Assembly (NCBI GenBank): GCA_964575955.1
Contig: CAZNTG010000009.1
Coordinates: 82,404 to 146,403 of the forward strand
From: an uncultured Thermoproteaceae archaeon
Lineage (GTDB): Archaea; Thermoproteota; Thermoprotei; Thermoproteales; Thermocladiaceae
Direction: 5' to 3'
Length of the DNA stretch: 64,000 nt
The translations under genes were made by a program, and so were the position numbers. Position 1 is the first letter of the stretch. The number at the start of each line of letters is the position of its first letter. The notes beneath the pieces were generated by a model that saw only the letters and a program-made list of their open reading frames with translations, searched no databases and was not told where the DNA came from. This document shows, piece by piece, positions 13,442-54,359 of this stretch.

Positions 13442-13491
13442 TCAGGCTCGCCCATCGTTCATCAATACTCAGCTACCAACGCGTTCATCAT
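13442..13491 (-). ncRNA. C/D-box guide sRNA
   Basis: Minus strand: ATGATGA-acgcgttggtag-CTGA-gta-TTGATGA-acgatgggcgagc-CTGA (C, D', C', D boxes with 12-13 nt guides). Confidence 0.9.
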
Positions 13492-13549
13492 AACTACGGT
13501 ATATATGTTAAGCACATATTTATAAGTTAGTCCTCTAGAGCACTTATAA

Positions 13550-13870
13550 ATGTCTGAGAGAGATTTAAGAATTGATATAGTTAAAATATTGTTCATACCT
13601 ACAGCATTTGCAATTGTAATATTACCAACAATATTTCTATTAATAATGGTTAAAATACCATTAAGTAAGTATATTTTAAGAATTTTATGGGCATCATGTG
13701 CAACTTGTATATATCTAACGTTTTTAACATCATGTATTATGTATAGGAGGGTTGTATATTTAAAATATAGAGATAATGAAAAAGCTTTGAAGATTAGTAA
13801 ACTTGCTAAGGTAGGAGTACTCATATTTGGAATTGCTATTATTGCACTTTGGATAGTTGTAGTAATATAA
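13550..13870 (+). CDS. Small membrane protein (about 3 TM), unknown function
   Basis: Hydrophobic segments; codon usage like neighbouring genes. Confidence 0.65.
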   Translation: MSERDLRIDIVKILFIPTAFAIVILPTIFLLIMVKIPLSKYILRILWASCATCIYLTFLTSCIMYRRVVYLKYRDNEKALKISKLAKVGVLIFGIAIIALWIVVVI

Positions 13871-13940
13871 GAACTTTCCGTAATGTACAACAGTTACAAT
13901 ATTGCACAAAGTGTAATTACTTCAACATGTAAAGATATAC

Positions 13941-14372
13941 TTGATGATTAAGGTTAGAGATGTAATGTCTAAAAGACTTGTAACAATCTCACCAAAAGCA
14001 ACTTTGAAAGAGGCTGCTGAGACAATGATTAAGAATGGTGTAAGTTTTCTAGTTGTAGTTCAGGATGGTAAGCTTTTTGGTGTTATTTCTGAGAAAGATA
14101 TTGTTAGATGTATTGCTGAAGGTAGAGATGTTAATAGTACAAAGATTGAAGATGTATGTACTAGAGAAGTCATAACTGTCAGAGATGAAGATTCTATACA
14201 GGATGCTGCAAAACTTATGAGAAGTCATAGAATTAGGCATCTAGTGGTTGTAGATTCCAACAAGAATCTTGTCGGTGTATTATCAATTAGAGATCTAGTT
14301 AGAGAGGAGGCAACATTAAAGAAGATTGAAGAATTAACACCTGAACAGCTTGAAGATTGGTGGTTTGGCTAA
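13941..14372 (+). CDS. CBS-domain pair protein
   Basis: VRDVMS, GVISEKDIVR, IRHLVVVD, GVLSIRDL. Confidence 0.93.
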   Translation: MMIKVRDVMSKRLVTISPKATLKEAAETMIKNGVSFLVVVQDGKLFGVISEKDIVRCIAEGRDVNSTKIEDVCTREVITVRDEDSIQDAAKLMRSHRIRHLVVVDSNKNLVGVLSIRDLVREEATLKKIEELTPEQLEDWWFG

Positions 14373-15139
14373 CCTTTCAATCTCTTCTCCTTCTCAAGAC
14401 CTCTCTTAATAGCTTCCATAATCTTTCCCTTAACACCTTCAAATTCTAAAAACTCTATAGTTTCTATAGTTATACCTCCAGGTGTTGCAACCATTGTAAT
14501 GATATCATCAGGCTTTTTCTCAAGTAGGTGCTTTCCTGTACCTATCAGTATGTTTGCAATAACTTTCAATGATGTCTCTCTATCAATTCCAGCAAGTACA
14601 CCACTCCAAGCTAGTGCATCTGCAATATATGCAATAAGTGCAGGTGTTACACCTGTAAGCATTGTGTATGCAGGCATGAGCTTTTCAGGAACTTCAATAA
14701 TAATACCAGCACCTTCTAACAACTTTTTAACTAGTTCAATATCACTTCTGGAAGTATTTCTACCTGGTGTTAATGCAATGACAGCATGTCTAACACGAAT
14801 ATTTATGTTAGGCATAAGACGTATAACTCTAGATTCAGGAAATAACTTCTCAATCTCATCTGTTGATAATCCTGCAACAATAGAAATTATCAATCTACCT
14901 TTAGCAAGATTACCAATCTCATTTGCAAGATCAGAAACATCTTGTGGACGTACAGATATAAACCATATATCACAAATCTCAGCAACTTCACGAGCAGAAT
15001 TACCTATATGAAAACCACGTTCACGAGCTAGTCTAAGTCTATCCTCAACAACATCATACACAACAACATCACATTTTTCACGAAAAACTTCTGCAAATGC
15101 CTCACCCATCTTACCATAGCCAAATAATCCCAATCTCAC
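14369..15139 (-). CDS. proC: Pyrroline-5-carboxylate reductase
   Basis: GYGKMG, SVRPQD, SIVAG, RLMPN, VATPGGIT. Confidence 0.93.
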   Translation of the reverse strand: MRLGLFGYGKMGEAFAEVFREKCDVVVYDVVEDRLRLARERGFHIGNSAREVAEICDIWFISVRPQDVSDLANEIGNLAKGRLIISIVAGLSTDEIEKLFPESRVIRLMPNINIRVRHAVIALTPGRNTSRSDIELVKKLLEGAGIIIEVPEKLMPAYTMLTGVTPALIAYIADALAWSGVLAGIDRETSLKVIANILIGTGKHLLEKKPDDIITMVATPGGITIETIEFLEFEGVKGKIMEAIKRGLEKEKRLKG

Positions 15140-15259
15140 ACATAGTGTTCAAGACGTGAGATATATAACTGTTAAATATTTCAATTATACTAAAATCATG
15201 AAGAATATGAAATTCTCTCTAAGACAATAACATGAATATAAATATGTAAAATATCGAGA

Positions 15260-15589
15260 ATGCATATGAATACTAACTGCAAATCTAGTAAGATAGATAT
15301 AACACATATAGAAAAGATTATTGAAGACATTATAGATAACATAAGACTTGATAAGGGGTTTAAAAGAAGACTAGTTAAGATATTGCGGAGGTATGATAGT
15401 TTTGACTACAAGAAATTTATAACATCACTAGAAGATTATATGCATGTTAGAAGTATAGTAACGATGTCGATAGTTAAGATATTGAAAGAAGATTTTGAAA
15501 GAGAGGAATGTAGAGAAATTGTAATAAATAAGATAGATAGCATAATTGAAAGATTGACAAGGTGTGAAAGTATTATTAAAAAATCATAA
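15260..15589 (+). CDS. Hypothetical helical protein
   Basis: 109-aa ORF filling an intergenic gap; typical codon usage. Confidence 0.55.
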   Translation: MHMNTNCKSSKIDITHIEKIIEDIIDNIRLDKGFKRRLVKILRRYDSFDYKKFITSLEDYMHVRSIVTMSIVKILKEDFEREECREIVINKIDSIIERLTRCESIIKKS

Positions 15590-15614
15590 AAATACATCTT
15601 AAGATGTTAGAAGT

Positions 15615-16148
15615 ATGGACTTTGATACAGCAAAAATTCTCGCAGCTATTGGTGCACTCCTGATAGCTATTGGTGTAATTAGTAGAGGTATATTGTCGAT
15701 AGTTGGTGGTATCTTATGGCTTATAGGAGTATACTATATGGCTAAGATAAAAGGTTCTCATGAGCTATTTGACACAGCATTAAAAAGTGCACTATTCATA
15801 ATAATAGGCTTTGCACTATTCCTAGCAATAGTATACACATTTGGACTAGGATCAATAGCAATGAACATATTTACAGGAGGTATAGCAATACCATTACTAC
15901 CACTAGCACTAGCAATATCAATACTACTAGCAGTAATATCACTATGCATATGTCTAATAGTATCAGCAATATACTACAAAAAACATAGCGACTTAATATC
16001 AAACATGTTTAACGAAAATCTTGCAAAAATAAGCGGAATACTAATGCTAGTAGGAGCACCATTAATAATAATATTTATAGGGCTCATACTAATATTCATA
16101 GCATGGCTAATAATGGCAATAGTACTATTCAAAATAAAACAACAATAA
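15615..16148 (+). CDS. DUF996-like membrane protein
   Basis: AKILAAIGALL N-terminus and IIFIGLILIFIAW.I.AI..F C-terminus. Confidence 0.7.
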   Translation: MDFDTAKILAAIGALLIAIGVISRGILSIVGGILWLIGVYYMAKIKGSHELFDTALKSALFIIIGFALFLAIVYTFGLGSIAMNIFTGGIAIPLLPLALAISILLAVISLCICLIVSAIYYKKHSDLISNMFNENLAKISGILMLVGAPLIIIFIGLILIFIAWLIMAIVLFKIKQQ

Positions 16149-16289
16149 TTCAAAATAGATAGTAACTTTATGAGACTAATATCGGAATAGGACATCCTAG
16201 CAATTGTATAGCTAACAACGTGCTCATCGATAATCCTCATTAGATAGTTAAACGTTAGTGTATGCATATGTCATACAATGATAAGATAA

Positions 16290-16437
16290 ATCTAGCTGCA
16301 CAATTAGAAAGAATAGATCAAAATTAACAATGGGGAGTTAGAAGATGAGTACAGGATAATATAAGACCTATAAGGAATCTCATAGATTTAATATGTTCAA
16401 GAGGGAAGAGGTTTATGAAAGTATTAGGACTTTATAA
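16290..16437 (+). pseudogene. Possible degraded RelE/StbE-type toxin fragment
   Basis: Frameshifted pieces read W-G-V-R / E-Y-R-I-I-* / F-K-R-E-E-V-Y-E, resembling the RelE C-terminal pattern RxRxGxYRIIY...RxxVY. Confidence 0.3.
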
Positions 16438-16498
16438 TCAAGGTGGTCTTAAAATGCTACCTATGCATAATCTCAAATTAACTTCTTCACATGCTAGG

Positions 16499-16546
16499 TC
16501 AGTGCCGGAAACCTTCTTCATCTTTCTGTTGCAGGACTTTCATCAT
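16499..16546 (-). ncRNA. C/D-box guide sRNA overlapping the radA stop codon
   Basis: ATGATGA-aagtcctgcaa-CAGA-aag-ATGAAGA-aggtttccggca-CTGA; the radA TGA lies in the C box. Confidence 0.85.
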
Positions 16547-17520
16547 GCATCTTCTATTCCTTTGTCTGTTATTCTGAATGTTGCTGTTGATTTATATGGT
16601 AGTCTTGGGCTGTCTAGTACTTCCATTATTCTTACATCATCTCTTGACTTTTTTAGGAATAGTCTATGTGTTACTGCGTGTGCTAGTACGTTTCCTCCTG
16701 CTGGTCTTTTAACTTCTATATATCCTAGTGGTATGTCTATTACTTGGTTTGTCATTACTATGAATATGTTGTATACTTTTGCTATTCTCATAAGCCAGTC
16801 TAGTATGTAGTTTAGTCTTTGTTGTCTTTCTGCTAGTCTTTCTCTACCTTTAAATTCTGCTCTATATAGTGCAATTATGGAGTCTATCACTATTAGTTTT
16901 ACGTTGTTCTGTTCTACAAGTTTTACAAGATCAAACTTTATCCTATCTTCAAGATCTGAAGCATTTACAACCTTTATAACATATATGTTATCTAGAGCTT
17001 GTTGTGGATCTATTCCAAATCTCTTCGCAATTGCCTCTATTCTAGATGGTGAAAATGCCTCTTCAGTATCTATGTATGCACATGCACCCTGTACACCACC
17101 TTTATCTCTTGGTAATTGTACAGTAACTGCAAGTTGATGACATATCTGTGTCTTACCTGTACCAAACTCACCAGCAAATTCATAAGTTGCTTTAGGTTCT
17201 AAACCACCATTAAGTAGTCTATCTATAGATTTGACACCAGTAGTCAATCTAGGCATATCTTGAATAGTTTTAACAAGTTCACTACCTTTCAAAACTCTCT
17301 TCTGACCAAAAACAAGCTCTCTAGCACTTCTCAAAATCTTCTCAGCTCTATCAGGAGTCATATCAGTAATATCAATCAACTCTTCAGGAGTAAACAATGC
17401 TAAATGTCTAGCAGATATGATACCCTTAGCCTGTAACATCTGAGCAGTCTTAGGACCAATACCATCAACATCTTCAAGATCGTATCCTGTACCTTTACCA
17501 CCCACATGTAGGATAGACAA
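16543..17520 (-). CDS. radA: DNA repair and recombination protein RadA
   Basis: N-terminal HhH (GIGPKTA), GEFGTGKTQ Walker A, YIDTE, IDSIIALYRAEF.GR..LAERQQ, GGNVLAH. Confidence 0.97.
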   Translation of the reverse strand: MSILHVGGKGTGYDLEDVDGIGPKTAQMLQAKGIISARHLALFTPEELIDITDMTPDRAEKILRSARELVFGQKRVLKGSELVKTIQDMPRLTTGVKSIDRLLNGGLEPKATYEFAGEFGTGKTQICHQLAVTVQLPRDKGGVQGACAYIDTEEAFSPSRIEAIAKRFGIDPQQALDNIYVIKVVNASDLEDRIKFDLVKLVEQNNVKLIVIDSIIALYRAEFKGRERLAERQQRLNYILDWLMRIAKVYNIFIVMTNQVIDIPLGYIEVKRPAGGNVLAHAVTHRLFLKKSRDDVRIMEVLDSPRLPYKSTATFRITDKGIEDA

Positions 17521-17551
17521 AGAGAAAATATATACCCAATCTACAAAATAA

Positions 17552-17601
17552 TCAGACGGGTTACCAACTCTTCATCTCTCTAGAAGCATGCGGCTCATCA
17601 T
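17552..17601 (-). ncRNA. C/D-box guide sRNA upstream of radA; D' guide complementary to tRNA-His
   Basis: ATGATGA-gccgcatgcttc-TAGA-gag-ATGAAGA-gttggtaacccgt-CTGA. Confidence 0.85.
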
Positions 17602-17694
17602 ACAGACATTATAGAACTTGAAAATACTAATAATTTTCTCACATAGAGATTCTAACATTAAATACTTATTAATCAGACAAGTATTACAGACATA

Positions 17695-19068: not shown

Positions 19069-19070
19069 TT

Positions 19071-20225: not shown

Positions 20226-20226
20226 A

Positions 20227-20625
20227 TCATCTATATACTACACATCTACAAATTTTAAGATTACTAACTTCAATTTTAACAATATCACCATCAGATATGT
20301 AGTTATAAAATTCTTCATCTATTTTAAACATCGGTATATTTCCCAATATAGATCCTACAAGTGTTAAAAGATCAACATCTACACACATAATTGCTTTTGG
20401 TGCCTTTCCATACTTAGATAATCCATAGAGAATGTATGAACCAACTGTAGAACCTATAGCAAATCTATATACTAGAATACTCTTATCTACACTACCTCTT
20501 CCACATATAGTTCCACTATTAATATCAATATCTCTAAGTAGGTTAATTTTATCAAACTTAACTACCCTACCTGAAATTTCTCCAATATTTGGACAAAATA
20601 TTTTGTAGATCTTAAATATCTTCAT
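20227..20625 (-). CDS. DUF126 / aconitase X swivel subunit (phosphomevalonate dehydratase small subunit-like)
   Basis: GSTVGSYILYGL...GKAP motif. Confidence 0.85.
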   Translation of the reverse strand: MKIFKIYKIFCPNIGEISGRVVKFDKINLLRDIDINSGTICGRGSVDKSILVYRFAIGSTVGSYILYGLSKYGKAPKAIMCVDVDLLTLVGSILGNIPMFKIDEEFYNYISDGDIVKIEVSNLKICRCVVYR

Positions 20626-23880: not shown

Positions 23881-23921
23881 ATAACAGAAAAACCCATTAA
23901 AAACATTAAACCTACAAAACA

Positions 23922-23935
23922 GAAACCCTTAAAAA
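23922..23935 (+). promoter_or_regulatory. BRE/TATA element of the tRNA-His gene
   Basis: gaaacc-cttaaaaa about 30 nt upstream of the tRNA 5' end. Confidence 0.45.
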
Positions 23936-23962
23936 CACTACACAAGACAGAGAGAATAGCAA

Positions 23963-24065
23963 GGCCGGGGTAGTGTAGCCTGGGAAGCATGCGGGCCTGT
24001 ACCAGGCCCCTTCGGGGCCGGGGGTAAGGAGCCCGTGGACCCGGGTTCAAATCCCGGCCCCGGCC
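23963..24065 (+). tRNA. tRNA-His(GTG) with encoded G-1 and a 27-nt intron (24001-24027) between anticodon positions 35/36
   Basis: Acceptor GCCGGGG/CCCCGGC with G-1:C73 (His identity); T arm CCGGG-TTCAAAT-CCCGG; anticodon stem CGGGC/GCCCG; removing 24001-24027 gives loop CT-GTG-GA. Confidence 0.88.
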
Positions 24066-24071
24066 AATCTC

Positions 24072-25013
24072 CTAGTAATACCATGTTAGTCTATATTCAT
24101 GCTCTGTGAGGTATGTTCCAACCATATGTGCATTACATACACTCTTTAAATCACATATTTCACATCTAGGATTTTCATATGTACATACTTTTCTACCATG
24201 ATTCCAGAGATAGTCATCTAGAATTGTAACATCTTTACCACATATTTTGGATACTTCTTTCCATGCTTTTCTAATAGTTAATCTAATTTCAACATCTAGA
24301 TTGTATGAAACTTCAACTCTATCCTGTATATATTTTATAATTTTTTCATCAAGATTTACAATTCCAAGTCTTATTGCAATTCTTGTTAGATGATTATCTA
24401 CAGGTATTTCAATATTTTCAAAATCTTTAATATTTACTAGCTTTCTTCTATGTAAAAATTTTAGTAGTAGGAATATCTTCTTCTCTACAGGATCTTCATA
24501 TGCTCTATATATTTTTAATAATTCTGCAATCCCTCTACTTCCTCTAATATATCCATTAGATTCTTTAAATATGTTACTAAATTTTCCATTATAGAGTATG
24601 TATGTTTTCTTACCTAAATCTCTTAGTAGTATTGTTCTAATATTGATATCCCATAATTCTACCATATCGTTTGGACATAGCCATCTTCTAACTATACTAA
24701 CGTCAACATCTTTCAATTTTTCAGGTGTGAAGAATTTTGGATCTTTATCATACATTTCCTTACCTAATCTCCATAGTAGATCTGCACCTTCAAAATATTC
24801 TTCACTAATTTTCAATCTATATTTTGTAAACATGCTTGTTCTATGGTCTATAGATACCATAGTTGTGAAGTATGATATTACCAATTCATAATCATCCTTT
24901 TCAGATGGGTAGTATCTAGGGTCTAGAAAGTTGTCAGGAGCTATCTCTAATCTCTTAAAGACATCTCCAACTCTGACTATCTGTTCCTGATTTATCCAGA
25001 TCATGATGTTCAT
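24072..25013 (-). CDS. HhH-GPD/Endo III-fold glycosylase-like protein with C-terminal 4Fe-4S loop
   Basis: PVDNHL.R...RLG, LDDYLW, C-X6-C-X2-C-X5-C. Confidence 0.7.
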   Translation of the reverse strand: MNIMIWINQEQIVRVGDVFKRLEIAPDNFLDPRYYPSEKDDYELVISYFTTMVSIDHRTSMFTKYRLKISEEYFEGADLLWRLGKEMYDKDPKFFTPEKLKDVDVSIVRRWLCPNDMVELWDINIRTILLRDLGKKTYILYNGKFSNIFKESNGYIRGSRGIAELLKIYRAYEDPVEKKIFLLLKFLHRRKLVNIKDFENIEIPVDNHLTRIAIRLGIVNLDEKIIKYIQDRVEVSYNLDVEIRLTIRKAWKEVSKICGKDVTILDDYLWNHGRKVCTYENPRCEICDLKSVCNAHMVGTYLTEHEYRLTWYY

Positions 25014-25655: not shown

Positions 25656-25658
25656 ATT

Positions 25659-28820: not shown

Positions 28821-28869
28821 ATGATGAATACGGAGCTCAATGATAGATGATTAACTGGGGAACTACTGA
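28821..28869 (+). ncRNA. C/D-box guide sRNA (array unit 1)
   Basis: ATGATGA-atacggagctca-ATGA-tag-ATGATTA-actggggaacta-CTGA. Confidence 0.85.
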
Positions 28870-28890
28870 TCTAAAAATGTTGTATAGACA

Positions 28891-28939
28891 ATGATGAAGT
28901 TTCACTTCGCTGAATGTTGATGAAGCCTCTACTCGCTGA
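28891..28939 (+). ncRNA. C/D-box guide sRNA (array unit 2)
   Basis: ATGATGA-agtttcacttcg-CTGA-atg-TTGATGA-agcctctactcg-CTGA. Confidence 0.92.
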
Positions 28940-28956
28940 ATATTCATCATTCTATA

Positions 28957-29006
28957 ATGATGACGCCAATTTGCCTCTGAATATTGATGAAGTCACCCGA
29001 GACTGA
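28957..29006 (+). ncRNA. C/D-box guide sRNA (array unit 3)
   Basis: ATGATGA-cgccaatttgcct-CTGA-ata-TTGATGA-agtcacccgaga-CTGA. Confidence 0.92.
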
Positions 29007-32587: not shown

Positions 32588-33403
32588 ATGGAAACGCTAG
32601 ATATACCTATTAAGAAGGATAGAGTATACATTGTCGGTCTTGGTCCAGGAGATGTATCATTAATAACTTTGAAAGCATTATCAATATTGAAGAAGGTTGA
32701 GGTAGCACTATACACAGGTTCATTACTAAGTCCAAAGCTTGTTAAACTCATTAAAGAATATGCCAAAGAGGTCTACAATACAGCGACATTGAGTGAAGAT
32801 GAGATTGTGAATATTCTTGAGAGTGGATATAGGAGAGGTAAATTAACAGCATGGTTTCACGATGGTTGTCCAACAATATATGGAGGTCTGTGGAATATAA
32901 TATCAAAATTGAAAGAGAGGAACATACCTTATGAGATAGTTCCAGGAGTACCATCATTTTGTGCTGCAGCAGCTAGATTAGGTATTGAACTTACAGTACC
33001 TGAAGAATCACAGACATTAATCATAAGTAGAATCAGTAGAAGAGCTCCTATGAGAGATGAAGAACGTGTTAGAAACTTCGTAGGTAAAGGAACGATAATA
33101 CTAATGCTTAGCATACATGCACCAGACCTAGTTGTTGAAGAATTGAAGAGTGGTGGTATGAGTGGTGATGAACAGATAGTCCTAGTACATAGAGTAACAT
33201 GGGGAGAACCTACAGAGAAAATTATTAGATGTAAATTAGAGGAACTTCCTAAAGTTGTTGAAAGAGAAAATATTAAAGGATGCTCTGTCATAATTGTTGG
33301 ACCATGTATAGATGAGAGAAGTTTCTCAAAAACTTTCAGAAGTATTGTATACTCACCCGATAAGCATAAATATAGTAGAACAGTAGTAAGTGAGGGTCAT
33401 TGA
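32588..33403 (+). CDS. cbiF: Cobalt-precorrin-4 C11-methyltransferase (CbiF/CobM)
   Basis: VGLGPGD, YTGSL, GCPTIYG, PGVPSF.AAAA.LG.ELTVPE.SQT. Confidence 0.85.
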   Translation: METLDIPIKKDRVYIVGLGPGDVSLITLKALSILKKVEVALYTGSLLSPKLVKLIKEYAKEVYNTATLSEDEIVNILESGYRRGKLTAWFHDGCPTIYGGLWNIISKLKERNIPYEIVPGVPSFCAAAARLGIELTVPEESQTLIISRISRRAPMRDEERVRNFVGKGTIILMLSIHAPDLVVEELKSGGMSGDEQIVLVHRVTWGEPTEKIIRCKLEELPKVVERENIKGCSVIIVGPCIDERSFSKTFRSIVYSPDKHKYSRTVVSEGH

Positions 33404-34563
33404 TAAATTTATCAAGAATAAGAGTTGGAATCTGTAAGACAGGTCTAGAGGCAGTTCTAATACTTGAAGATGGGTCAATATACTATGGATGTGGTTTTGG
33501 TGCTAAGGGTACTGCAGTTGGAGAGGTAGTATTTACAACATCAATGGTTGGATATCCAGAATCATTAACAGATCCAAGCTATGCAGGTCAAATATTGATA
33601 ATTACACACCCACTAGTTGGCAATTATGGTGTTGCATCTAGAGAATTAGCAATATATGGTGTGCCACTACACTTCGAATCTGATAGAATATGGGTATCAG
33701 GATTTGTAATACACGACTTAACAGAGCCAAGTCACTGGTCATCAATTATGAGTTTAGATGAGTGGCTTCGTAGAGAGGGAATACCTGGAATATATAGAGT
33801 TGATACACGTGCATTAGTGAAGAAGATTAGAGAGAAAGGTGTTATGATGGGCATATTACACGTATATGATCCTAGAGAAGAAGAGCCAGACATAGATGAG
33901 CTATATGCAAAATTGAAAAGTTCTCCAAGATATGATGATATACCTTTCGTAGATATAGTATCTCCAAAAGAAGTAATAGTTCATGAACCTGAAAATCCAA
34001 AAATTACTGTAGGTATACTTGACTGCGGTGTTAAGTATGGAATTGTTAGAGAATTATTAAAGAGGAGGTGTAGAGTTGTGAGATATCCACCATATACAGA
34101 TCCTTCAAAGATAGTTAATGAATGCGATGGTGTTGTAATTAGTAATGGTCCTGGAAATCCTGCAGTACTTACAGAAATTATAAAGCGTGTACAAGCATTA
34201 ATAGAGTATGGAATACCAATACTAGGTATATGCCTTGGACATCAACTAACATCACTAGCACTTGGAGCAAAGACATTCAAATTAAAGTACGGTCATAGAG
34301 GTCCAAATAAGACTGTTAAAGATTTAGAGACAGGTAGATGCTATATAACAACTCAAAATCATGGTTTTGCAGTAGATAGAGAACTTGCAGAAAAGGTTGG
34401 ACTGAAATTATGGTTTATAAATGTTGATGATAAGACTGTTGAAGGTTTAAAACATGTAAATAAACCAATAATAACAGTGCAGTTTCATCCTGAGGCAGGA
34501 CCTGGACCTCATGATACATCTTGGATATTTGACCTATTTCTAAAAATGATGAAAGCTCAGTAA
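33400..34563 (+). CDS. carA: Carbamoyl-phosphate synthase small subunit
   Basis: GEVVFTT.M.GYPESLTDPSY.GQ, SNGPGNP, GICLGHQ, QNHG, QFHPEA.PGP.D. Confidence 0.97.
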   Translation: MINLSRIRVGICKTGLEAVLILEDGSIYYGCGFGAKGTAVGEVVFTTSMVGYPESLTDPSYAGQILIITHPLVGNYGVASRELAIYGVPLHFESDRIWVSGFVIHDLTEPSHWSSIMSLDEWLRREGIPGIYRVDTRALVKKIREKGVMMGILHVYDPREEEPDIDELYAKLKSSPRYDDIPFVDIVSPKEVIVHEPENPKITVGILDCGVKYGIVRELLKRRCRVVRYPPYTDPSKIVNECDGVVISNGPGNPAVLTEIIKRVQALIEYGIPILGICLGHQLTSLALGAKTFKLKYGHRGPNKTVKDLETGRCYITTQNHGFAVDRELAEKVGLKLWFINVDDKTVEGLKHVNKPIITVQFHPEAGPGPHDTSWIFDLFLKMMKAQ

Positions 34564-40090: not shown

Positions 40091-42328
40091 CTATGTTGGA
40101 GATACGTATATATGCATTAGATTTAGTGTATGCCAGAATCCGAAGTAGTTTGGTACTAGTCCACTAACCTTCGGATTTACAACATATATACCATTGACAG
40201 CTGCTAACCATACTCTAACTGCCTGTAGTGTACAGTAGTAGACAGACCAGTAGTATAGTTCTGCACGCTGTTTCAAACTCTTAAACTTTCCATTAGCTAG
40301 ATCATACGTTGCCTTGTATAGTGACATGTGTAGTTGTGGTATGTATATCTTAGATGCATTATACTGCCAATATCCTGGAACACCCCAGCCAGGCATTAAG
40401 CTATCTAGTGCACAGAAGTCGTATGGATTAGCATCATGATACTTCTCTATCTCTGTATCAATCCAACCTTCAGTATATATCATCCATTTCATATCTGCAG
40501 GATTTGAACTATATACAATACGGTAGGCATCTCTACCAGTTATAAGTTTATCAATTACTTCAAATCCAAGTTTCTGTAATATTGATTCTACATATGCTCC
40601 AATAACCTTTCTCTGATCTTCCATTCTTCTAGCAACAATAATCTTCACAGGTACAAGCTTACCTCCAGTTGCGTTAAGTGGACAGTACCACTTACCATTC
40701 TTGTAGATGTATCCATGCTCTTTCAATGTTTTGAATATCAATTCCTTACCATATGTGAAGTTATATGTTAATCCTAGCTTATATATTATAGGTTCTACAA
40801 TCTTGTAATCAGCAGAGTACTGTGGTGGTAATGCTACGAAGTATATTGGCTCTGCATATCCTAGATAGATTTCCTTCACAATATACTTCCTATTAATTAG
40901 GAAGTTGAATGCGTATCTCACAGCCGCATACTCAAATGGGTTACAGTATATTCCATGTGCTTTAGCTTCTGAATCTGGTGGTGCTGGATTGAATAGTAGA
41001 TCAACATATCCATTACCTAGAACGTATGCTTTCAGGTAGTTTCCATAACCCTCAGTCTGTAACTTAGAAGCTATTGATGGTGGAATATTCCATAAGTATC
41101 CTGTTAATATACCCTTAATAACCTCTTCAGGAGCTTTCTCACTTGGAACCTGCTCTATAGTTATGACCTTGTACTTCCATACTTCATCAGGCACTGTCTT
41201 AACATTTAGATGCATTATCGTGTTCAATATGTAATCGAAAGTCTTTCCATGAATTGGATATTTAGGCCATGTTTTAAGTATTAGAGCTCTCTCAGATACA
41301 TATACTCTATCAATCATGTAATATCCATCTCCAATCCATCCATGTCCATGAGTCTTTATGAAGTCAATTACAAGTCTATAATCTCTAGATGCTTCACTTG
41401 GAGTTACTGCTCCAAGAATCTTCTTCCAACTCTCAGGTGCATTCTTTATTGCTGGTGGTATAGCACCACTACTTGCCAACTTCTCAAGCATTGGTATTAG
41501 ATACTTTGAAAGTTCTTTACTATCCTTCAAATCTATACATGGAATATTCTTAGCAGATGCTACCTGCTCTGTAAGTGCAACTTTTCCTTCACCAGCAAGC
41601 ATTTCTAAAGCATACATCTCAGACCATGGAAGTGATGGCCATAATATTGCATTCATAACAATCTTGCCATAGTATGGATGTGTGTAGTTTACATAAACTA
41701 TGAATGCCGTCTTATTGATCACGTTAATAGCTTTAACAATAGGTAGAAAGCTTGGTCCAATCATTGACGCATATGCTGGATCGTAAAATGTCTGATTTGG
41801 AGTCCACTTCTTAGTCCACTCCCAATTTATATAGTACATGTATATTATATCCCATAGAGTTTCAGTCTGATTATCTTGCCATGTACCAAGCTTACAGTTA
41901 AATACAACAGCATTTAATGCTGTACCATTAACCTTAACCCAACGCATATACTTTCCATTCCATGCATAGCCATTAATCTTCAAAGGTCCACGAATAACCT
42001 TAAACGTACATTGAAATGGTACGACATCACCAGTTTTTGGATTTCTAACAACAGGAATACCATTGACAGGACTTAGAATAATGTAGTCATAAATCCATGC
42101 ATTAACAGCAACATTCCAAGGATTCCACTCTACAGTCCAAGGCATCAATGTTCCAAAAGTCATCTTCTCAAGCTTTGGAGAAATTACAGGCTTTGTAGGT
42201 TTCACAGGTTTTGTAGGCTTTACAGGTGTTACAGGTGGTCTATGTGACATAGCATACCAAGCTGCAACACCTATAACTATTATAGCAATAACTACACCAA
42301 CTATAATTCCAACTACCTTCTTAGACAT
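40091..42328 (-). CDS. Family 5 ABC substrate-binding protein, membrane-anchored
   Basis: N-terminal TM plus Pro/Thr linker; NPFEYAAVRYAFNFLINR, YTEGW, MPGWG; upstream of opp permeases. Confidence 0.9.
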   Translation of the reverse strand: MSKKVVGIIVGVVIAIIVIGVAAWYAMSHRPPVTPVKPTKPVKPTKPVISPKLEKMTFGTLMPWTVEWNPWNVAVNAWIYDYIILSPVNGIPVVRNPKTGDVVPFQCTFKVIRGPLKINGYAWNGKYMRWVKVNGTALNAVVFNCKLGTWQDNQTETLWDIIYMYYINWEWTKKWTPNQTFYDPAYASMIGPSFLPIVKAINVINKTAFIVYVNYTHPYYGKIVMNAILWPSLPWSEMYALEMLAGEGKVALTEQVASAKNIPCIDLKDSKELSKYLIPMLEKLASSGAIPPAIKNAPESWKKILGAVTPSEASRDYRLVIDFIKTHGHGWIGDGYYMIDRVYVSERALILKTWPKYPIHGKTFDYILNTIMHLNVKTVPDEVWKYKVITIEQVPSEKAPEEVIKGILTGYLWNIPPSIASKLQTEGYGNYLKAYVLGNGYVDLLFNPAPPDSEAKAHGIYCNPFEYAAVRYAFNFLINRKYIVKEIYLGYAEPIYFVALPPQYSADYKIVEPIIYKLGLTYNFTYGKELIFKTLKEHGYIYKNGKWYCPLNATGGKLVPVKIIVARRMEDQRKVIGAYVESILQKLGFEVIDKLITGRDAYRIVYSSNPADMKWMIYTEGWIDTEIEKYHDANPYDFCALDSLMPGWGVPGYWQYNASKIYIPQLHMSLYKATYDLANGKFKSLKQRAELYYWSVYYCTLQAVRVWLAAVNGIYVVNPKVSGLVPNYFGFWHTLNLMHIYVSPT
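42186..42235 (-). repeat. Imperfect 18-bp tandem repeat encoding a (PVKPTK)n linker
   Basis: acaggctttgtaggtttc / acaggttttgtaggcttt / acagg; protein PVTPVKPTKPVKPTKPV. Confidence 0.7.
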
Positions 42329-46874: not shown

Positions 46875-46881
46875 ATTTATA

Positions 46882-46931
46882 TCAGCCGGTACGTGAATTC
46901 TTCATATTTCCGTTTCGGGAGCTTTCATCAT
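46882..46931 (-). ncRNA. C/D-box guide sRNA (convergent pair, right); C box contains the upstream stop codon
   Basis: ATGATGA-aagctcccgaaa-CGGA-aat-ATGAAGA-attcacgtaccgg-CTGA. Confidence 0.85.
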
Positions 46932-47641
46932 TCTAGATATTGATCTGGATTTCTCCATATTGGTGCTAGGTGTGGTGCTATGTAGTACTCATTTATTACT
47001 TTAACATCTAGTTTTTCAAAATCTCTAATTGCAATGTTGCAGTACATTATTAATCCAAGCTTATTCAACTCTACTACTGCAATTTCAAGTTTCTTCATAT
47101 CTACTTCATCTCCATAGACCTCTTTCAATCTATCCTTATAGTGTTCTCCTAGCCATTTCTCATCAAATGTTATGAAGCTTGTACTCATCAATTCTCTATC
47201 TAATGCCATAATTCTGATTAACCTCTTAGCATAATCGCTCAATCCCTTAATCCTATACTTGATATTTTCTACATGTGGTCTACATAGCTCTTCATTTTCT
47301 GAAAAATACCATAGTAGAAACATGTTTATAAGTTGATGCATCTTTACAACATTATTACCAACCTTAATACTAACTCTTAATGGTTCTTTATCAATATTTG
47401 AAATTCCAAGTTTTTCAAGTAGTTTCTTAGCAATATTATTCCACTTCTCTCTAAAATCTTTAAGACCTAGTGAGAAGTATATTACATAGTGCTTATATAC
47501 GCACATATCTATACAGTGTAGTGCTATCCATGCTTTATCGAAGTGTATTAGTAAATTCTTCTTAACAAACTCCTCCTCAAATAACTGTGTAAACGTTCTG
47601 TAGAGATCCTTCAATTCTTCAACACTGTACGACTTCTCCAT
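46928..47641 (-). CDS. Hypothetical protein, possible C-terminal wHTH
   Basis: 237-aa ORF with native codon usage; ELNKLGLI helix. Confidence 0.6.
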   Translation of the reverse strand: MEKSYSVEELKDLYRTFTQLFEEEFVKKNLLIHFDKAWIALHCIDMCVYKHYVIYFSLGLKDFREKWNNIAKKLLEKLGISNIDKEPLRVSIKVGNNVVKMHQLINMFLLWYFSENEELCRPHVENIKYRIKGLSDYAKRLIRIMALDRELMSTSFITFDEKWLGEHYKDRLKEVYGDEVDMKKLEIAVVELNKLGLIMYCNIAIRDFEKLDVKVINEYYIAPHLAPIWRNPDQYLE

Positions 47642-47738
47642 CTACAACACCTATCTGCCTGTCAAATTCAAAAATATTCTCATCAATATAGAGATGGCAC
47701 ATGTATATATAAAAGTGTTCTAGACATAGTATCTAGAT

Positions 47739-49565: not shown

Positions 49566-49569
49566 TACT

Positions 49570-50691
49570 ATGTCTACACTAAAGGCAATATTGGTATATA
49601 GAGAGGCTAGTGAAGATATGAAAAAGTTTACAGATAATCCAATACCTACAATCTTTGGAAAATCAATATTAAAACATTATGTAGATATTCTAAGAGAGAG
49701 ATTTGACATATCTACAATATACCTATACACACCTGTAGAGTTTGAAATTTTTGAAAGTATTGAAAATGTCAACATACTCACAGATATTTCAAATATAGAG
49801 AAGGGTACATACATAATAATTCCACTAGACGTATATATTCCATCAGATGCATTAAACATACTAGTAAACTACTACACATCTATAGGTGTTGATGTTGTTG
49901 TTCTAGTAGCACCTTGTGAAAATGCTAAAAATATGCCAACACTAGATGTTGATACATCTACAGGAAAGATTATAGATATTGTAAGTGTAGATGAGGAGAG
50001 ACCTGACCTAGTACTTACAGGAATATACATTGCTGAACATGAGATTGCTAGAGAACTAGTAGTTAATGATTGGAGAGGTGTTCAGAAAGCTGTAAGATCA
50101 GGATTAAAGATTGATAAGACTTACTGGTCAGGTGAGTGGTGTAGAATTCAGACACCTTGGGATTTACTAGCACTTGCAAAAGCTACATTACTATCAGAGA
50201 GAGAGCCAGGATTATACATACATCCTAAAGCTAAGATAAGCACTAGAGCATCTATAGAAGTTAAGGAAGGTCCTGTAATAATTGATGAAAATGCATACAT
50301 AGATCATGATGTACTAATTAGAGGACCAGTATATATTGGTAAGAATGTCTATGTTGGATATGGATCACTTATAAGAAATTTCACAATTATTGAAGAATCA
50401 TCAGCTATAGGATCTAACGTAGATATTACAGAAAGTGTACTACTTAGAGAAGTAACAGTTGGTAGAGGATCGTACATAAGCTGTTCAGTTATTGGTGAAA
50501 AAGCAATACTAGAGCCAGGTGTAGTTACTAGAAGTGTAACAGGTAGAACATATAGAAGAGCTAAAGGTAGAGAGGTAGAGAAGAGAGGTTCTATAATTGG
50601 AGCAAATTCAAGAATTGGAGCATACACAGTACTAAGTCCAGGAAGATTTATAGAGAAAAATACAACAATAGAACCACTAACAAAACTATAA
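49570..50691 (+). CDS. Sugar-phosphate nucleotidyltransferase-like protein with left-handed beta-helix (GlmU/GMPP-like, divergent N-terminus)
   Basis: Hexapeptide repeats, GPVYIG, PWDLL; canonical LAAG.G motif absent. Confidence 0.7.
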   Translation: MSTLKAILVYREASEDMKKFTDNPIPTIFGKSILKHYVDILRERFDISTIYLYTPVEFEIFESIENVNILTDISNIEKGTYIIIPLDVYIPSDALNILVNYYTSIGVDVVVLVAPCENAKNMPTLDVDTSTGKIIDIVSVDEERPDLVLTGIYIAEHEIARELVVNDWRGVQKAVRSGLKIDKTYWSGEWCRIQTPWDLLALAKATLLSEREPGLYIHPKAKISTRASIEVKEGPVIIDENAYIDHDVLIRGPVYIGKNVYVGYGSLIRNFTIIEESSAIGSNVDITESVLLREVTVGRGSYISCSVIGEKAILEPGVVTRSVTGRTYRRAKGREVEKRGSIIGANSRIGAYTVLSPGRFIEKNTTIEPLTKL

Positions 50692-51632
50692 TGAAAATAC
50701 ATGTATCAAACTCAAAGATAGACAATATATTAAAAAACATAGAGATAAATTCAGAAATTGAAGTTAAAAATATTGAAGACTACATAATACTACATAGATT
50801 TGAGAAAATATTGAAATATGTAAAAATAAAATACTATCCAAAAGATAGAATTGAAGAATATGTAATAAGCATGTTAAATATAGAAGATATTGAGGAATAT
50901 AAGAAGATTAGAAAAATAGTAGCAGAAAATGCAGATATAGACATAAAATTAATGCTTAGAATAATACCATGGAAAGACGCATTCAAAATACTACAGGAAA
51001 AGTATAGAACAACTAGTGAAAATATTGAAAATTTAATACAAACATCATGGATGTTAACTAGATACCACATGCATACATATGCTAGAAGTATACTAGAAAA
51101 CTACATAATAGATAAGGTTAGAGATAGTTTAGACATATTGAAAATAGTTGCATTAATACTATTTGGAATTTTAGATATTAGAAAAATACCATACAACTCA
51201 ATATCAGTAAAAAGTAATGACATATTCAAATACTTCAACTGGACAATACTACAAATAGATAACAACAACATAATAACAATATTCAAAGCATGTGATAGAG
51301 AATATGTACTATCAAATCAATCAATAATATCAGAACAAGCAAGAATCACAATACCAGAAGAATGTAAAATAATACAAAAAGAAGAACATAAAATACTAAT
51401 AAAAAATAAAGTAGAAAAAATACTAATATGTGCAACAACAGACAAAGAAAAACAAGAACTAGACATAGAATATGAAAAAATAAACATAAAAGGACCAGAC
51501 CTAGACTATGAAGACAATAACAACAAAATAAAAATAACAATACCACAAAACACACTATACATAATAAGAGGAAAATTCAAAACAAATGATGAAAAACAAA
51601 AACAGAAAGATGAAGAAGAGCTGACGAACTGA
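50691..51632 (+). CDS. Hypothetical protein
   Basis: 313-aa ORF coupled to the previous gene; very A-rich 3' half. Confidence 0.55.
   Translation: MKIHVSNSKIDNILKNIEINSEIEVKNIEDYIILHRFEKILKYVKIKYYPKDRIEEYVISMLNIEDIEEYKKIRKIVAENADIDIKLMLRIIPWKDAFKILQEKYRTTSENIENLIQTSWMLTRYHMHTYARSILENYIIDKVRDSLDILKIVALILFGILDIRKIPYNSISVKSNDIFKYFNWTILQIDNNNIITIFKACDREYVLSNQSIISEQARITIPEECKIIQKEEHKILIKNKVEKILICATTDKEKQELDIEYEKINIKGPDLDYEDNNNKIKITIPQNTLYIIRGKFKTNDEKQKQKDEEELTN
51586..51632 (+). ncRNA. C/D-box guide sRNA nested in the 3' end of a CDS
   Basis: ATGATGA-aaaacaaaaa-CAGA-aag-ATGAAGA-agagctgacgaa-CTGA; the D-box TGA is the ORF stop. Confidence 0.7.
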
Positions 51633-51635
51633 TTA

Positions 51636-52988
51636 TCATTTACTATCTTTTCTACTAATATCTGTATATTTATTTGAGAATTCTATTAACATATTTTTGA
51701 GCAAATCCTCTATGTTGTTATCAACATTTATTTTTACTTCCATAGATGAAACCTCACGTACAATTGGATTTACAAGTCCGCAATGTGCAAGTATGTTTCT
51801 ATATGCTTTCTCTTTGTCTACTTTAGCTTGTTCTACAATATCTACAACTTCCTCTCTTGAAGTAGTGCTTCTTGTGTATGATTGAGTTTTAGCTTTCTTT
51901 ATTTTCTCTATCTCGACCATGCATATGCTATATACATTCTCGTCCAATATACCTGATGAATATAAGTCCTCTAGTATAGACTCAACTTTAGAGAATTTTA
52001 GATTCTGGCCAGGTTTTCCAGTCTTATAATTCACTTTCTCATAAGCTTGCAGTATCTTTACAAATATTGCTAAATCATACATTAAGTATAGTAGAGCCTC
52101 TCTATTATGGCTACATTTGAATGTATACCTGATAGTGTTATTATACAACTTCCTTCTTTCATCTGTAACTTTTATCTCATTATTAATTATGTTTTCTACT
52201 ATAGATCTTAGTTTTTCTGTTATATTTTCATAAGAATTTAATATTTTGTAAATGTAGTACCATCCTAGAGTAATTATTCCCCTTCTATAATATTCGGCTG
52301 AGAGTGTGACATATTCTAAAATTTTTGAAGAATCTTCATCTATAATACTATTATCTTTAAGATTATGAATTATATTCATTATCTCGCCTATATCAGTATT
52401 CAGTTTAGATCTAACACGTTCAATATTAATTTCCGTAATTCTCAATATAGGGAACTCTAACTCTTTATCTTGAATCTTCTCAGTATCTTCTCCACATCTA
52501 GGCAGCTTTTTCTCACCTCCAATAAATGGTTCAGTTATGAATATTCTCATTTTAAGCATAGATCCTATAAGTGCTATTGCATACATCGATAATGTGGGGA
52601 GAACATTCCATCCATGAGTTAAATCAACAACAACTTCATTACCCCTGAGATACTCTCTTAAAGAGAGTGCGATAACAGCAGTGGGAATAGCGAGCAAGTC
52701 GCCCTCATATCGAATTCCAGAGATACTACCAACAGCTTCAACTTTTAAGATATCTGGACATACATTTAAAGCACGTTCAACTTCACGTATTAGACAAGTA
52801 ATGTCATCATCAGGAACACTATCTGGAACAACTAATGTAAGATGCACCTTGCATCCTCTATCACTCAAAAATTTTGCAAGAGCAACGAAAGAAGCACATG
52901 AGAGGTAAGTAGAATCATCTTTATAATACTTAACATAACTCCAATTCCGAGGATTACCAATAGGAGCAATAATAGATATACAACACAC
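51636..52988 (-). CDS. csx1: Csx1-like CARF-HEPN ribonuclease (orphan)
   Basis: APIGNP..W..V.Y N-terminus, VPDS, VDLTHGWN (DxTHG), C-terminal RNILAHCG (R-X4-H HEPN). Confidence 0.85.
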   Translation of the reverse strand: MCCISIIAPIGNPRNWSYVKYYKDDSTYLSCASFVALAKFLSDRGCKVHLTLVVPDSVPDDDITCLIREVERALNVCPDILKVEAVGSISGIRYEGDLLAIPTAVIALSLREYLRGNEVVVDLTHGWNVLPTLSMYAIALIGSMLKMRIFITEPFIGGEKKLPRCGEDTEKIQDKELEFPILRITEINIERVRSKLNTDIGEIMNIIHNLKDNSIIDEDSSKILEYVTLSAEYYRRGIITLGWYYIYKILNSYENITEKLRSIVENIINNEIKVTDERRKLYNNTIRYTFKCSHNREALLYLMYDLAIFVKILQAYEKVNYKTGKPGQNLKFSKVESILEDLYSSGILDENVYSICMVEIEKIKKAKTQSYTRSTTSREEVVDIVEQAKVDKEKAYRNILAHCGLVNPIVREVSSMEVKINVDNNIEDLLKNMLIEFSNKYTDISRKDSK

Positions 52989-53101
52989 AATAACTCAGTA
53001 ATATGCAACCTTATACGACTATCTTCACATACATCAGTATAAATAATGAAGAAACATGAAACATAGAAAAAACTAGTGAGAAATTAGAATGTCTATTGTC
53101 T

Positions 53102-53128
53102 GGGTGTTTCCAAAAATTGGAAACACCC
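53102..53128. promoter_or_regulatory. Perfect inverted repeat upstream of csx1 (operator or hairpin)
   Basis: GGGTGTTTCCAA-aaa-TTGGAAACACCC; 12-bp perfect arms. Confidence 0.55.
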
Positions 53129-53263
53129 TTAATCATCAAAAAGGTCAGGAATTGCCGAGCGTTTTTCTATACCTTTCAATTGTGTATGGCTTGATTTAGA
53201 ATTTTTTTGACTATGTTGTCTAGGTTTGTTCTTTCCTTATTTTTGTAGTTTGTTGTTTATTTT

Positions 53264-53584
53264 TTATGGTGGTTCTTCTTCGTTTTCTTCTTCATCATCC
53301 TGCATTTGTAGTATTTGTAGTATTTTTTGTCCTAATCTTGTTATTGTGTTATATATGCATATTATGTTTTCATATATTGGGTGTGGTGCTTCATATCTGT
53401 TTATTAGTCCTAGTTTTTCTGCTAATTTTAATGTTTGATGTCCATAACCCCACGATCTTAACCATCTCAAAACCTCACGAGTATAAGGATCTCTTCCTGT
53501 TTTTGTTGTAAATTCTGCAATAGTTTTTAATAGTCTTAATAGCATGCAGCTTCTCTTCCTAAATTTGTTAAACCAATTTTTCAT
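53264..53584 (-). CDS. Small winged-helix DNA-binding protein with acidic tail
   Basis: LAEKLGLI.R...ITRLGQKIL wing motif; DDEEENEEE tail. Confidence 0.65.
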   Translation of the reverse strand: MKNWFNKFRKRSCMLLRLLKTIAEFTTKTGRDPYTREVLRWLRSWGYGHQTLKLAEKLGLINRYEAPHPIYENIICIYNTITRLGQKILQILQMQDDEEENEEEPP

Positions 53585-53665
53585 AGGTGTATCTATCCTA
53601 TCTAACTTATAAGCCTTTTGGAGTTCTTATCTGTCTGGTGCTATTTTTAGTTTTCTAGAGTGAAA

Positions 53666-54274
53666 CTATTTTTCTAGAAGTATACATATAAATCCACAAT
53701 CTTTAGGATTTATGCATAGTGTCTTTCCTGTATGTATATGTTTTAGATTAATTTTCTCTGCAATATCTACAATATCTTTCTCAGTGTAGAATTTTGCATA
53801 TTTGTAGAATATTGATTCACCTCTAACTTTCTTTTCTTCATACATCTTTCCTAGATATGAATCTTTTGGAATTATACATATTAGTATTTTTCCTCTTTCT
53901 TTTAGACATCTATAACATTCTTCTAAAACTATCTTTGGATTATCTATGAAGCATATTGTTACTATTATTAGTATGTAGTTTAGTGATTTATCTTTTATTG
54001 GTAATTTCTCTCCTATGCAATGTATAACTTCTATATTTCTATACTTCTTACAAAATTTACACATTTCAAAAGATATATCTATACCAATGCAGTCTTTGAA
54101 TAGTCTTGTGAAGTAGCATGTTCCTGAACCAATTTCAATTCCAATACCTTTAAGGTTGAATGATTTTATTAGAAATTCTTCACACTTGGCTTTATCTAAA
54201 TTCTTTATATACCAACTTTCATATCTTTCAACATTTTTATCGAATATTTCTGCTATACCTCTATACTTATCCAC
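53666..54274 (-). CDS. Class I SAM-dependent methyltransferase
   Basis: EIGSGT, GIDIS, GEKLP, VTICFIDNP. Confidence 0.88.
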   Translation of the reverse strand: MDKYRGIAEIFDKNVERYESWYIKNLDKAKCEEFLIKSFNLKGIGIEIGSGTCYFTRLFKDCIGIDISFEMCKFCKKYRNIEVIHCIGEKLPIKDKSLNYILIIVTICFIDNPKIVLEECYRCLKERGKILICIIPKDSYLGKMYEEKKVRGESIFYKYAKFYTEKDIVDIAEKINLKHIHTGKTLCINPKDCGFICILLEK

Positions 54275-54309
54275 ACTTATCAGAACTCTACTCTTGATTT
54301 GAGGATTTT

Positions 54310-54359
54310 TCAGTCTACCTGTCGTTCTTCATCTATTCTGTCAGCGACCTCTTCATCAT
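54310..54359 (-). ncRNA. C/D-box guide sRNA overlapping the stop of the glutamate synthase-like gene
   Basis: ATGATGA-agaggtcgctga-CAGA-atag-ATGAAGA-acgacaggtaga-CTGA. Confidence 0.85.

Follow-up and report, generated by a model that had tools for sequence, protein, structure and literature searches.

What does a dense group of short, similarly built elements represent in an archaeal genome, and what do the few internal scaffolds that recur among them tell about their history? This question is raised by a 64-kb stretch of DNA (G000:C9:82404-146403, in the following the window) from an uncultured vent archaeon of the order Thermoproteales. An initial annotation had pointed out eleven elements in it, composed of a C box, a spacer, internal D' and C' boxes, a second spacer and a D box, and had read them as box C/D small RNA (sRNA) genes guiding 2'-O-methylation. 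Motif statistics, covariation, guide complementarity, conservation and switching among orthologs, and the presence of the genes for the partner proteins were observed. Based on these data, we consider it very probable that the eleven elements are archaeal box C/D guide sRNA genes of approximately 47 to 50 nucleotides (nt), the scaffolds of which would be interconverting forms of one internal K-loop. The source genome (G000) comprises 1,521,267 bases in 15 contigs with ~33% G+C and is rated 94.7% complete; six genomes of the same genus (G001-G006, in the following sister genomes) were available for comparison.

All eleven elements were found at their annotated positions and with the described layout, every one having both the ATGATGA and the CTGA box. 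The pattern ATGATGA-N20-50-CTGA matched 12 times within the window, compared with a mean of 3.82 and a maximum of 9 in 100 shuffles, none of which reached 12. The twelfth match (33932-33992, +) was rejected as an sRNA and considered a chance occurrence, being devoid of internal boxes and located inside the open reading frame (ORF) 33400..34563; the initial annotation had rightly left it out. Its class counts were exact as well. Seven elements combine a CAGA-like D' box with ATGAAGA and three show CTGA-RTR-TTGATGA, with the eleventh (28821, elements being named by their first position) representing a third class, ATGA-TAGA-TGATTA. A strict four-box scan of the genome (C box, 9-14 nt, D' box with at most one mismatch, loop, C' box with at most one mismatch, 9-14 nt, CTGA) detected 123 sites vs none in the reversed genome and recovered ten of the window elements. 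It missed 17552, the D' box of which (TAGA) carries two mismatches and which a relaxed scan recovered. Relaxed scans gave 108, 128, 130, 148, and 164 sites, with 0, 2, 2, 2, and 11 in the reversed genome, respectively. After merging of alternative C-box starts, the 148-hit set consisted of 140 distinct genes, all eleven window elements included. An RTGATGA C box is present in 123 of these 140 genes. Spacer length ranges from 10 to 13 nt, 12 nt being most frequent (92 and 100 of 148), and loop length from 2 to 8 nt, with 4 nt most frequent (85 of 148); the scan itself presupposed GA. A profile hidden Markov model (HMM) built from the 140 genes matched 146 sites with at least 10 bits, compared with one in the reversed genome. 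Nineteen of its sites are not part of the motif set; most of these have spacers of 14-15 nt or deviating terminal boxes, and none is located in the window. When 42 kb were searched permissively against Rfam, nine of the eleven elements aligned over their full length with models of archaeal C/D RNAs (snoPyro_CD, sR2, sR5, sR9, sR20, and others).

The guides were scored by the longest Watson-Crick run including the fifth position upstream of D or D', considering 280 spacers and the 16S and 23S ribosomal RNA (rRNA) of three relatives from other genera of the same family (G007, G009, and G010). Runs of at least 10 nt were obtained for 60 of the 280 guides on sense rRNA vs 7 on the antisense strand and 5.2 with shuffled guides (mean of 10). 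At a length of at least 9 nt, the corresponding numbers were 110, 32, and 27.8 (mean of 10). Within the window, seven of the eleven sRNAs have a guide run of at least 10 nt and nine have one of at least 9 nt. Predicted N+5 methylation positions correspond, for example, to 505 and 946 of the 16S and to 1801/1828 and 3307 of the 23S rRNA of G009. Genome-wide, 87 of the 140 genes show at least one guide run of at least 9 nt, and 10 of 23 dual hits are located within 100 nt of each other on one rRNA.

Comparison with the sister genomes revealed orthologs for ten of the eleven elements. Their boxes and guides are kept (9-13 of 12-13 guide positions), whereas the loop between D' and C' varies freely, a pattern of constraint that is expected of guide RNAs. 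The sRNAs are 83-94% identical to those of the sister genomes, compared with ~64-81% over longer matches of the flanking genes. The required protein partners are encoded as well: fibrillarin (348 bits), a Nop domain (236 bits), and L7Ae (106 bits) were all detected in G000 above the Pfam cut-offs. Box layout, guide-rRNA complementarity, ortholog conservation, and partner proteins all support the identity as methylation guides proposed in the initial annotation. From the sequence we infer transcription, ribonucleoprotein (RNP) assembly, and methylation as follows. A terminal kink-turn (K-turn) would be formed by the C and D boxes and an internal K-loop by the D' and C' boxes. Both motifs would serve as binding sites for L7Ae, which in turn would recruit Nop5 and fibrillarin. 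Through its two spacers of 10-13 nt, each sRNA would base-pair with rRNA or transfer RNA (tRNA), and the 2'-O-methyl group would be placed on the target nucleotide that faces guide position five, counted upstream from D or D'. The elements are thus read as genuine, previously uncatalogued, and otherwise ordinary members of a textbook RNA class (Table 1).

Table 1. Predicted box C/D sRNA genes of the window and a predicted tRNA target. Positions are those of the window; guide match gives the guide, its Watson-Crick run and the matched RNA of relatives.
Feature	Position	Strand	Context	Guide match	Orthologs in sister genomes	Rfam
Box C/D sRNA, U.U K-loop (CTGA-GTAT-TGATGA)	13442..13491	-	First 30 nt overlap 3' end of ORF 13462..13890	D', 9 nt, 16S	6/6; 9-13 of 12-13 guide positions identical, loops variable	sR2, 30.4 bits, sub-threshold
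Box C/D sRNA, A.A K-loop (CAGA-AAGA-TGAAGA)	16499..16546	-	C-box TGA is stop codon of ORF 16543..17520	D, 11 nt, 16S of three relatives	5/6	
Box C/D sRNA, D' TAGA and C' TGAAGA	17552..17601	-	Spacer between divergent genes	D', 11 nt, intron-bearing tRNA of this window (last row)	G001, G002, G004	
Box C/D sRNA, first of three-gene cluster, U:A at 4b:4n (ATGA-TAGA-TGATTA)	28821..28869	+	Four boxes		G003 and G006, on other contigs, same K-loop type	sR20, 32.1 bits, sub-threshold
Box C/D sRNA, second of cluster, U.U K-loop	28891..28939	+	Four boxes		G003, G005, G006; 11-12 of 12 guide positions identical	Best snoPyro_CD, 37 bits (gathering 45)
Box C/D sRNA, third of cluster, U.U K-loop, dual guide	28957..29006	+	Four boxes	D', 11 nt, and D, 10 nt, 23S of G009, sites 27 nt apart		
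Box C/D sRNA, A.A K-loop	34546..34594	+	Overlaps last 18 nt of ORF 33400..34563	D, 11 nt, 16S	6/6	
Box C/D sRNA, A.A K-loop	46826..46874	+	Four boxes; convergent with 46882	D, 9 nt, 23S	6/6	
Box C/D sRNA, D' CGGA and C' TGAAGA	46882..46931	-	C-box TGA is stop codon of ORF 46928..47641	D, 11 nt, 23S	6/6	
Candidate box C/D sRNA	51586..51632	+	Wholly inside 3' end of ORF 50691..51632; D-box TGA is the ORF stop codon	D, 10 nt, 16S of G010 only		
Box C/D sRNA, A.A K-loop	54310..54359	-	C-box TGA is stop codon of ORF 54356..55738	D, 11 nt, 23S of three relatives		
Intron-containing tRNA, predicted target of 17552 D' guide	23964..24066	+				tRNA, 46.6 bits, permissive search

The recurring scaffolds were analyzed in kink-turn numbering, with the C or C' strand denoted b and the D or D' strand denoted n, and with two G.A pairs being followed by the positions 3b.3n and 4b:4n. 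The K-loop as a box C/D kink-turn motif was reportedly dealt with by Nolivos et al. in 2005. In the 140 genes, position 2 of D' and position 4 of C' (3n/3b) occur as U/U in 61, A/A in 43, U/A in 18, A/U in 2, G/A in 5, and C/G in 4 cases, with strong covariation (Fisher P = 2e-16 on the A/U 2x2 table). Position 1 of D' and position 5 of C' (4n/4b) were C/G in 108, A/U in 17, G/C in 3, and U/G in 6 genes, so that 4b:4n can form a Watson-Crick or wobble pair in 134 of 140. Association between positions that are not partners was weak (P = 0.002 to 0.14). The differences between the scaffold classes fall exactly on 3b.3n and 4b:4n of the internal K-loop. According to this predicted pairing, CAGA/ATGAAGA corresponds to a K-loop that carries A.A at 3b.3n and CTGA/TTGATGA to the canonical U.U K-loop, and in the type of 28821 (ATGA/TGATTA) 4b:4n is occupied by a compensated U:A. 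A strong preference of archaeal C/D K-turns for U:U at 3b:3n and G:C at 4b:4n is stated by Ashraf et al. (2017, PMC5689011), and the pairing is also given by Breuer et al. (2021, PMC7994747).

Among orthologs carrying the same guides, these forms were found to replace one another. Of 41 ortholog pairs, 20 retained 3b.3n, 10 had one side of it altered, and 11 both sides, while 4b:4n was the same in all of them; three more orthologs of 34546, shifted in register by one base, were excluded by the matching rule. The K-loop of 16499 is CAGA/TGAAGA in G000, G002, and G004, CGGA/TGAAGA in G001, and CTGA/TGATGA in G003 and G006. For 46882, CGGA/TGAAGA in G000 corresponds to CAGA/TGAAGA in G001, G002, and G004 and to CTGA/TGATGA in G003, G005, and G006. 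Likewise, 54310 has CAGA/TGAAGA in G000 and CTGA/TGATGA in G002, 28957 has CTGA/TGATGA in G000, CCGA/TGAGGA (C-G) in G003, and CTGA/TGAGGA in G006, and 34546 shows five D'/C' combinations across seven genomes. In the model that we favor, K-loop forms with U.U, A.A, A.U, or C-G at 3b.3n and G:C, U:A, or C:G at 4b:4n would interconvert at orthologous loci with the guides remaining fixed.

This observation bears directly on the proposal of the initial annotation that the sRNAs spread by copying an existing gene as a scaffold and replacing both guides, in which case the scaffold classes would reflect common descent. The classes are indeed discrete, with the loop TAGA recurring in six members of the ATGA/TGATTA class. 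Moreover, 46 single-guide pairs have at least 9 identities vs 13.45 for shuffled guides, a modest excess, and gene duplication, transposed guides, and a miniature inverted-repeat transposable element (MITE)-like expansion are described for Pyrobaculum in the main text of Lui et al. (2018, PMC6009581). However, in 21 of the 41 same-guide ortholog pairs 3b.3n is not the same, with both sides altered in 11, and the classes differ exactly at the paired K-loop positions, neither of which is in favor of shared descent of a scaffold. The loops within the A.A class are highly diverse, and the 140 genes contain only one pair of whole-gene duplicates, C6:339963 (-) and C6:590109 (-), so that guides and loops gave little sign of a duplicated or retroposed sRNA family like the MITE-like expansion of P. 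calidifontis. The two members of this pair share 10 of 12 and 11 of 11 guide positions and differ in the D' box (CTGA vs CGGA).

The three-gene cluster at 28821-29006, with its genes on one strand and separated by 21 and 17 nt, is probably one transcript and provides a further test of this proposal. In G003 and in G006, same-guide orthologs of the three genes are found on three different contigs. The syntenic junction is free of a C/D gene in all five sister genomes covered, with the junction of G002 outside the coverage. These genes have therefore changed place rather than having been copied and provided with new guides. The ortholog of the middle gene (28891) adjoins, in G003 and G006, the ortholog of a gene for a 745-amino-acid protein located at 40091-42328 of the window. 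Taken together, an origin by copying and guide replacement was not borne out and is very improbable. Judged from the sequences, the scaffolds are interchangeable and covarying K-loop forms and not lineage markers or traces of copying. A scaffold that recurs in such RNAs is accordingly to be read as covariation of RNA structure and not as evidence of gene copying.

The switching of K-loops has a direction on the level of lineages. Whole-genome counts using the D'-to-D half of the motif (reversed-pattern controls 0-2 per strand) gave A.A to U.U ratios of 40:29 in G000, 32:20 in G004, 29:22 in G002, and 33:16 in G001, compared with 11:54 in G005, 15:69 in G003, and 11:76 in G006. A genome of the neighboring genus (G008) showed 8:15 and other genera of the family 0-7:2-10. 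In a second family of the order, 31:21 (G014) and 22:23 (G016) were counted, and in Pyrobaculum-like genomes 0-9:0-1. The split within the genus was first noticed in these counts and then tested independently by a maximum-likelihood tree of two concatenated proteins (938 columns), which separated {G000, G001, G002, G004} from {G003, G005, G006} with a support of 100/99, in agreement with the protein identities. Since the outgroups are rich in U.U, the enrichment of A.A is most simply explained as derived in the first group, and about 30-40 K-loops probably changed from U.U to A.A on the branch that gave rise to G000 and three sister genomes. Of the intermediate CTGA/TGAAGA, 16 copies were counted in G000 and 4-6 each in G004, G002, and G005, the members of the genus covered by the separate sample drawn for this count; the four-box set of 140 contains 18 CTGA/TGAAGA and 5 CGGA/TGAAGA intermediates. 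A.A was found in the terminal K-turn of 4 of 155 candidates vs 43 of 140 internally. This specificity for the K-loop, with the terminal K-turn remaining canonical, argues against a plain U-to-A mutation bias. The enrichment in G014 and G016 hints at convergence in a second lineage of the order.

Gene conversion could in principle produce such a pattern by homogenizing the D'-loop-C' module in concert while leaving the guides untouched, in accordance with the many loci that changed in one direction on one branch and with a short module that is repeated ~140 times. Yet the loops differ among A.A members and among orthologs, a diversity that conversion of the whole module would erase, and the CTGA/TGAAGA and CGGA/TGAAGA intermediates fit stepwise point changes. 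We therefore regard concerted evolution as very improbable. The shift may be neutral drift through a tolerated A.U intermediate or the result of selection. The furthest-reaching reading, that the lineage re-tuned a family of ~140 guides, with tens of independent genes passing from U.U to A.A through A.U while the terminal K-turn and the L7Ae core remained unchanged, is tentative and, in our view, possible but rather doubtful. If selection was the driving force, for instance by way of a change of Nop5 or of assembly factors, or of a need for stricter protein-dependent folding, it would provide a natural experiment in which an RNP co-evolves with the whole of its RNA repertoire, and A.A would be a fully functional 3b.3n pair of a K-loop. 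In McPhee et al. (2014, PMC4382518), final fluorescence resonance energy transfer (FRET) values of Kt-7 in Mg2+ are given as 0.41 for U.U, 0.24 for A.A, 0.21 for A.U, and 0.28 for U.A, with A.A folding less well than U.U; by analogy with this different RNA context, an A.A K-loop should be more dependent on protein for its folding. The lineage-specific swap represents a compact and testable case for the sequence rules by which kink-turns and K-loops are recognized, and it also bears on the way in which the members of a multi-gene RNA family jointly drift or adapt. The shift was not found described in the literature searched. The main text of Lui et al. (PMC6009581) is free of the strings UGAAGA, CAGA, and 3b3n, and its Figure 2 and supplements, in which types of K-loop pairs are tabulated, may show similar variants. 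It is the one feature of the system that may be new.

Two further explanations of the shift were considered and rejected. Co-evolution with L7Ae found no correlate, as A.A-rich and U.U-rich genomes have the same L7Ae core and all five differing columns are located in the tails or a distal helix. A link between A.A and loss of the D' guide was equally absent, with D' runs of at least 9 nt in 21 of 43 A.A genes vs 17 of 37 U.U genes. The four candidates with A.A in the terminal K-turn (G000:C6:24002, C6:315325, C6:581256 (-), and C6:67972 (-)) have the form RTGAAGA...CAGA with CTGA/TGATGA inside, and resemble the common A.A type in circularly permuted form.

Several points weigh against our interpretation of the eleven elements as guide sRNA genes with interchangeable K-loops. 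Targets had to be scored on rRNA of other genera, because the G000 assembly contains no 16S or 23S rRNA genes and no 16S match was found in the six sister genomes; the unassembled rRNA operon limits target mapping for the whole genus. For 28821 and 28891, no run of at least 9 nt to rRNA or tRNA was obtained and no target is predicted, although 10-12 of 12 positions of their guides are identical in the sister genomes. The least certain of the eleven is 51586, which has no ortholog in any of the six sister genomes (its host ORF is without a DNA match there), lies inside an ORF, and carries a low-complexity D' spacer (10 nt, A-rich). At gathering thresholds, no Rfam C/D family was reached by any element (best 37 bits vs 45), and 17552 and 54310 remained without an Rfam match at E<=5 in the permissive search. 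Sub-gathering scores are expected for guide-specific families, and as the guides differ, the elements are not members of those families. No terminal stem beyond chance was detected in the flanks (9-10 observed vs 9-12 with shuffled partners). The covariation statistics treat genes as independent and could be inflated by shared ancestry, and the switching counts refer to a sample of 13 guide families and not to the whole set. Finally, the sequencing runs containing the stretch are two DNA or contig runs, one labeled as hydrothermal vent metagenome and one possibly the source, and no RNA run is among them, which is uninformative on expression either way. That the elements are chance or coding-driven combinations of motifs, or remnants of repeats or mobile elements, has nevertheless a negligible probability: six of eleven reach into or directly adjoin the 3' end of an ORF and 51586 is entirely within one, but 123-148 hits contrast with 0-2 in the reversed-genome controls, the guides match rRNA specifically on its sense strand, and conservation of the sRNAs exceeds that of the flanking genes.

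The size of the repertoire had been extrapolated from the window to about 170 per Mb. This density was not confirmed. The genome-wide scan proposed alongside yielded 140 motif-defined and up to 19 profile-only genes, and the repertoire is accordingly ~140-159 predicted genes or 92-105 per Mb, about half the extrapolated value. The 140 genes in 1.52 Mb (92 per Mb) correspond to an expectation of 5.9 per 64 kb (Poisson P(>=11) = 0.038), and 5 of 103 sliding 64-kb windows reach 11 at a mean of 5.2; the window represents a roughly two-fold hotspot. Ignicoccus hospitalis and Methanopyrus kandleri have genomes of ~1.3 Mb and ~1.7 Mb, respectively, sizes on which any comparison of density depends. 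The sets listed in the text of Breuer et al. (PMC7994747) comprise 128 C/D sRNAs for I. hospitalis, 127 for M. kandleri, 88 for Pyrobaculum calidifontis, and 61 for Sulfolobus acidocaldarius. The first two resemble the present case in being hyperthermophiles with small genomes and well over 100 guide genes; the 140-159 predicted genes of G000 would form a slightly larger set. The claim of a very large repertoire therefore holds in that it is at or above the largest listed sets, while it is not unprecedented. In total, ~140-160 predicted methylation guides are added for an uncultured vent archaeon.

The genomic context of the genes points to a frequent connection with upstream ORFs. In the whole set, a same-strand ORF (at least 100 codons) ends with its stop codon within or immediately ahead of 36 of the 140 genes, compared with 5.65 for random intervals. 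In 21 of 140, this stop codon is the TGA of the C box, including three elements of the window (16499, 46882, and 54310). Because the C-box TGA often is the stop codon of the upstream gene, many sRNAs would probably be made by read-through of the upstream mRNA.

Compared with known systems, the predicted sRNAs are closest to those of Pyrobaculum, for which the main text of Lui et al. (PMC6009581) covers 526 genes in six genomes. Both belong to the same order-level lineage and share the C/D'/C'/D box arrangement, a K-turn together with a K-loop, and the N+5 rule. Further parallels are C boxes that supply the stop codon of an upstream gene, overlap with ORF 3' ends, dual guides at nearby rRNA sites, gene mobility between species, gene clusters, and more box variability than in Pyrococcus. 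In contrast to that set, the density is higher here (~92-105 per Mb), C-box stop codons are more common (21 of 140 vs 23 of 526), and the dominant internal K-loop is reported here as A.A and not U.U. In common with the known box C/D kink-turn, as described in the text of PMC5689011 and PMC4382518, tandem G.A pairs are followed by 3b.3n and 4b:4n, and the terminal K-turn keeps U.U and G:C. The internal K-loop departs from the canonical kink-turn by A.A in 43 of 140 genes and by U:A at 4b:4n in 17 of 140.

The predicted tRNA target of 17552 (23964-24066) was placed by ARAGORN at 23978-24065 and called Glu(TTC). It was missed in two Rfam searches at gathering thresholds, one of them restricted to 23900-24120; in the window, Rfam at gathering thresholds reported one tRNA only. 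A manual reading of its stems suggests another anticodon (GUA or UGU) and an intron after the anticodon loop. In G002, the guide of the 17552 ortholog has changed from A to G and the tRNA keeps its U, so that a G.U wobble forms and pairing is kept. Guide-target covariation was nevertheless rejected for this pair, the wobble being compatible and not compensatory. ARAGORN with introns allowed also returned spurious tRNAs with kilobase introns, and guide matches to them were disregarded.

Fibrillarin and Nop5 genes are an adjacent pair in many archaea. In G000, they are located on separate contigs (G000:C6:311294-311974 and G000:C3:84191-84874). The L7Ae protein (G000:C6; L012:1372-1866, -) consists of 164 amino acids with an N-terminal extension of ~20 amino acids and a Lys/Ala-rich C-terminal tail, both of which are also present in the sister genomes. 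More distant relatives of the same order carry 16S genes interrupted by introns. The D guides of 16499 and 46882 (AAGGTTTCCGG and TTCACGTACCGG) recur in C/D-like matches of other families of the class and of Pyrobaculum-like genomes, which suggests very old, conserved methylation sites as their putative targets.

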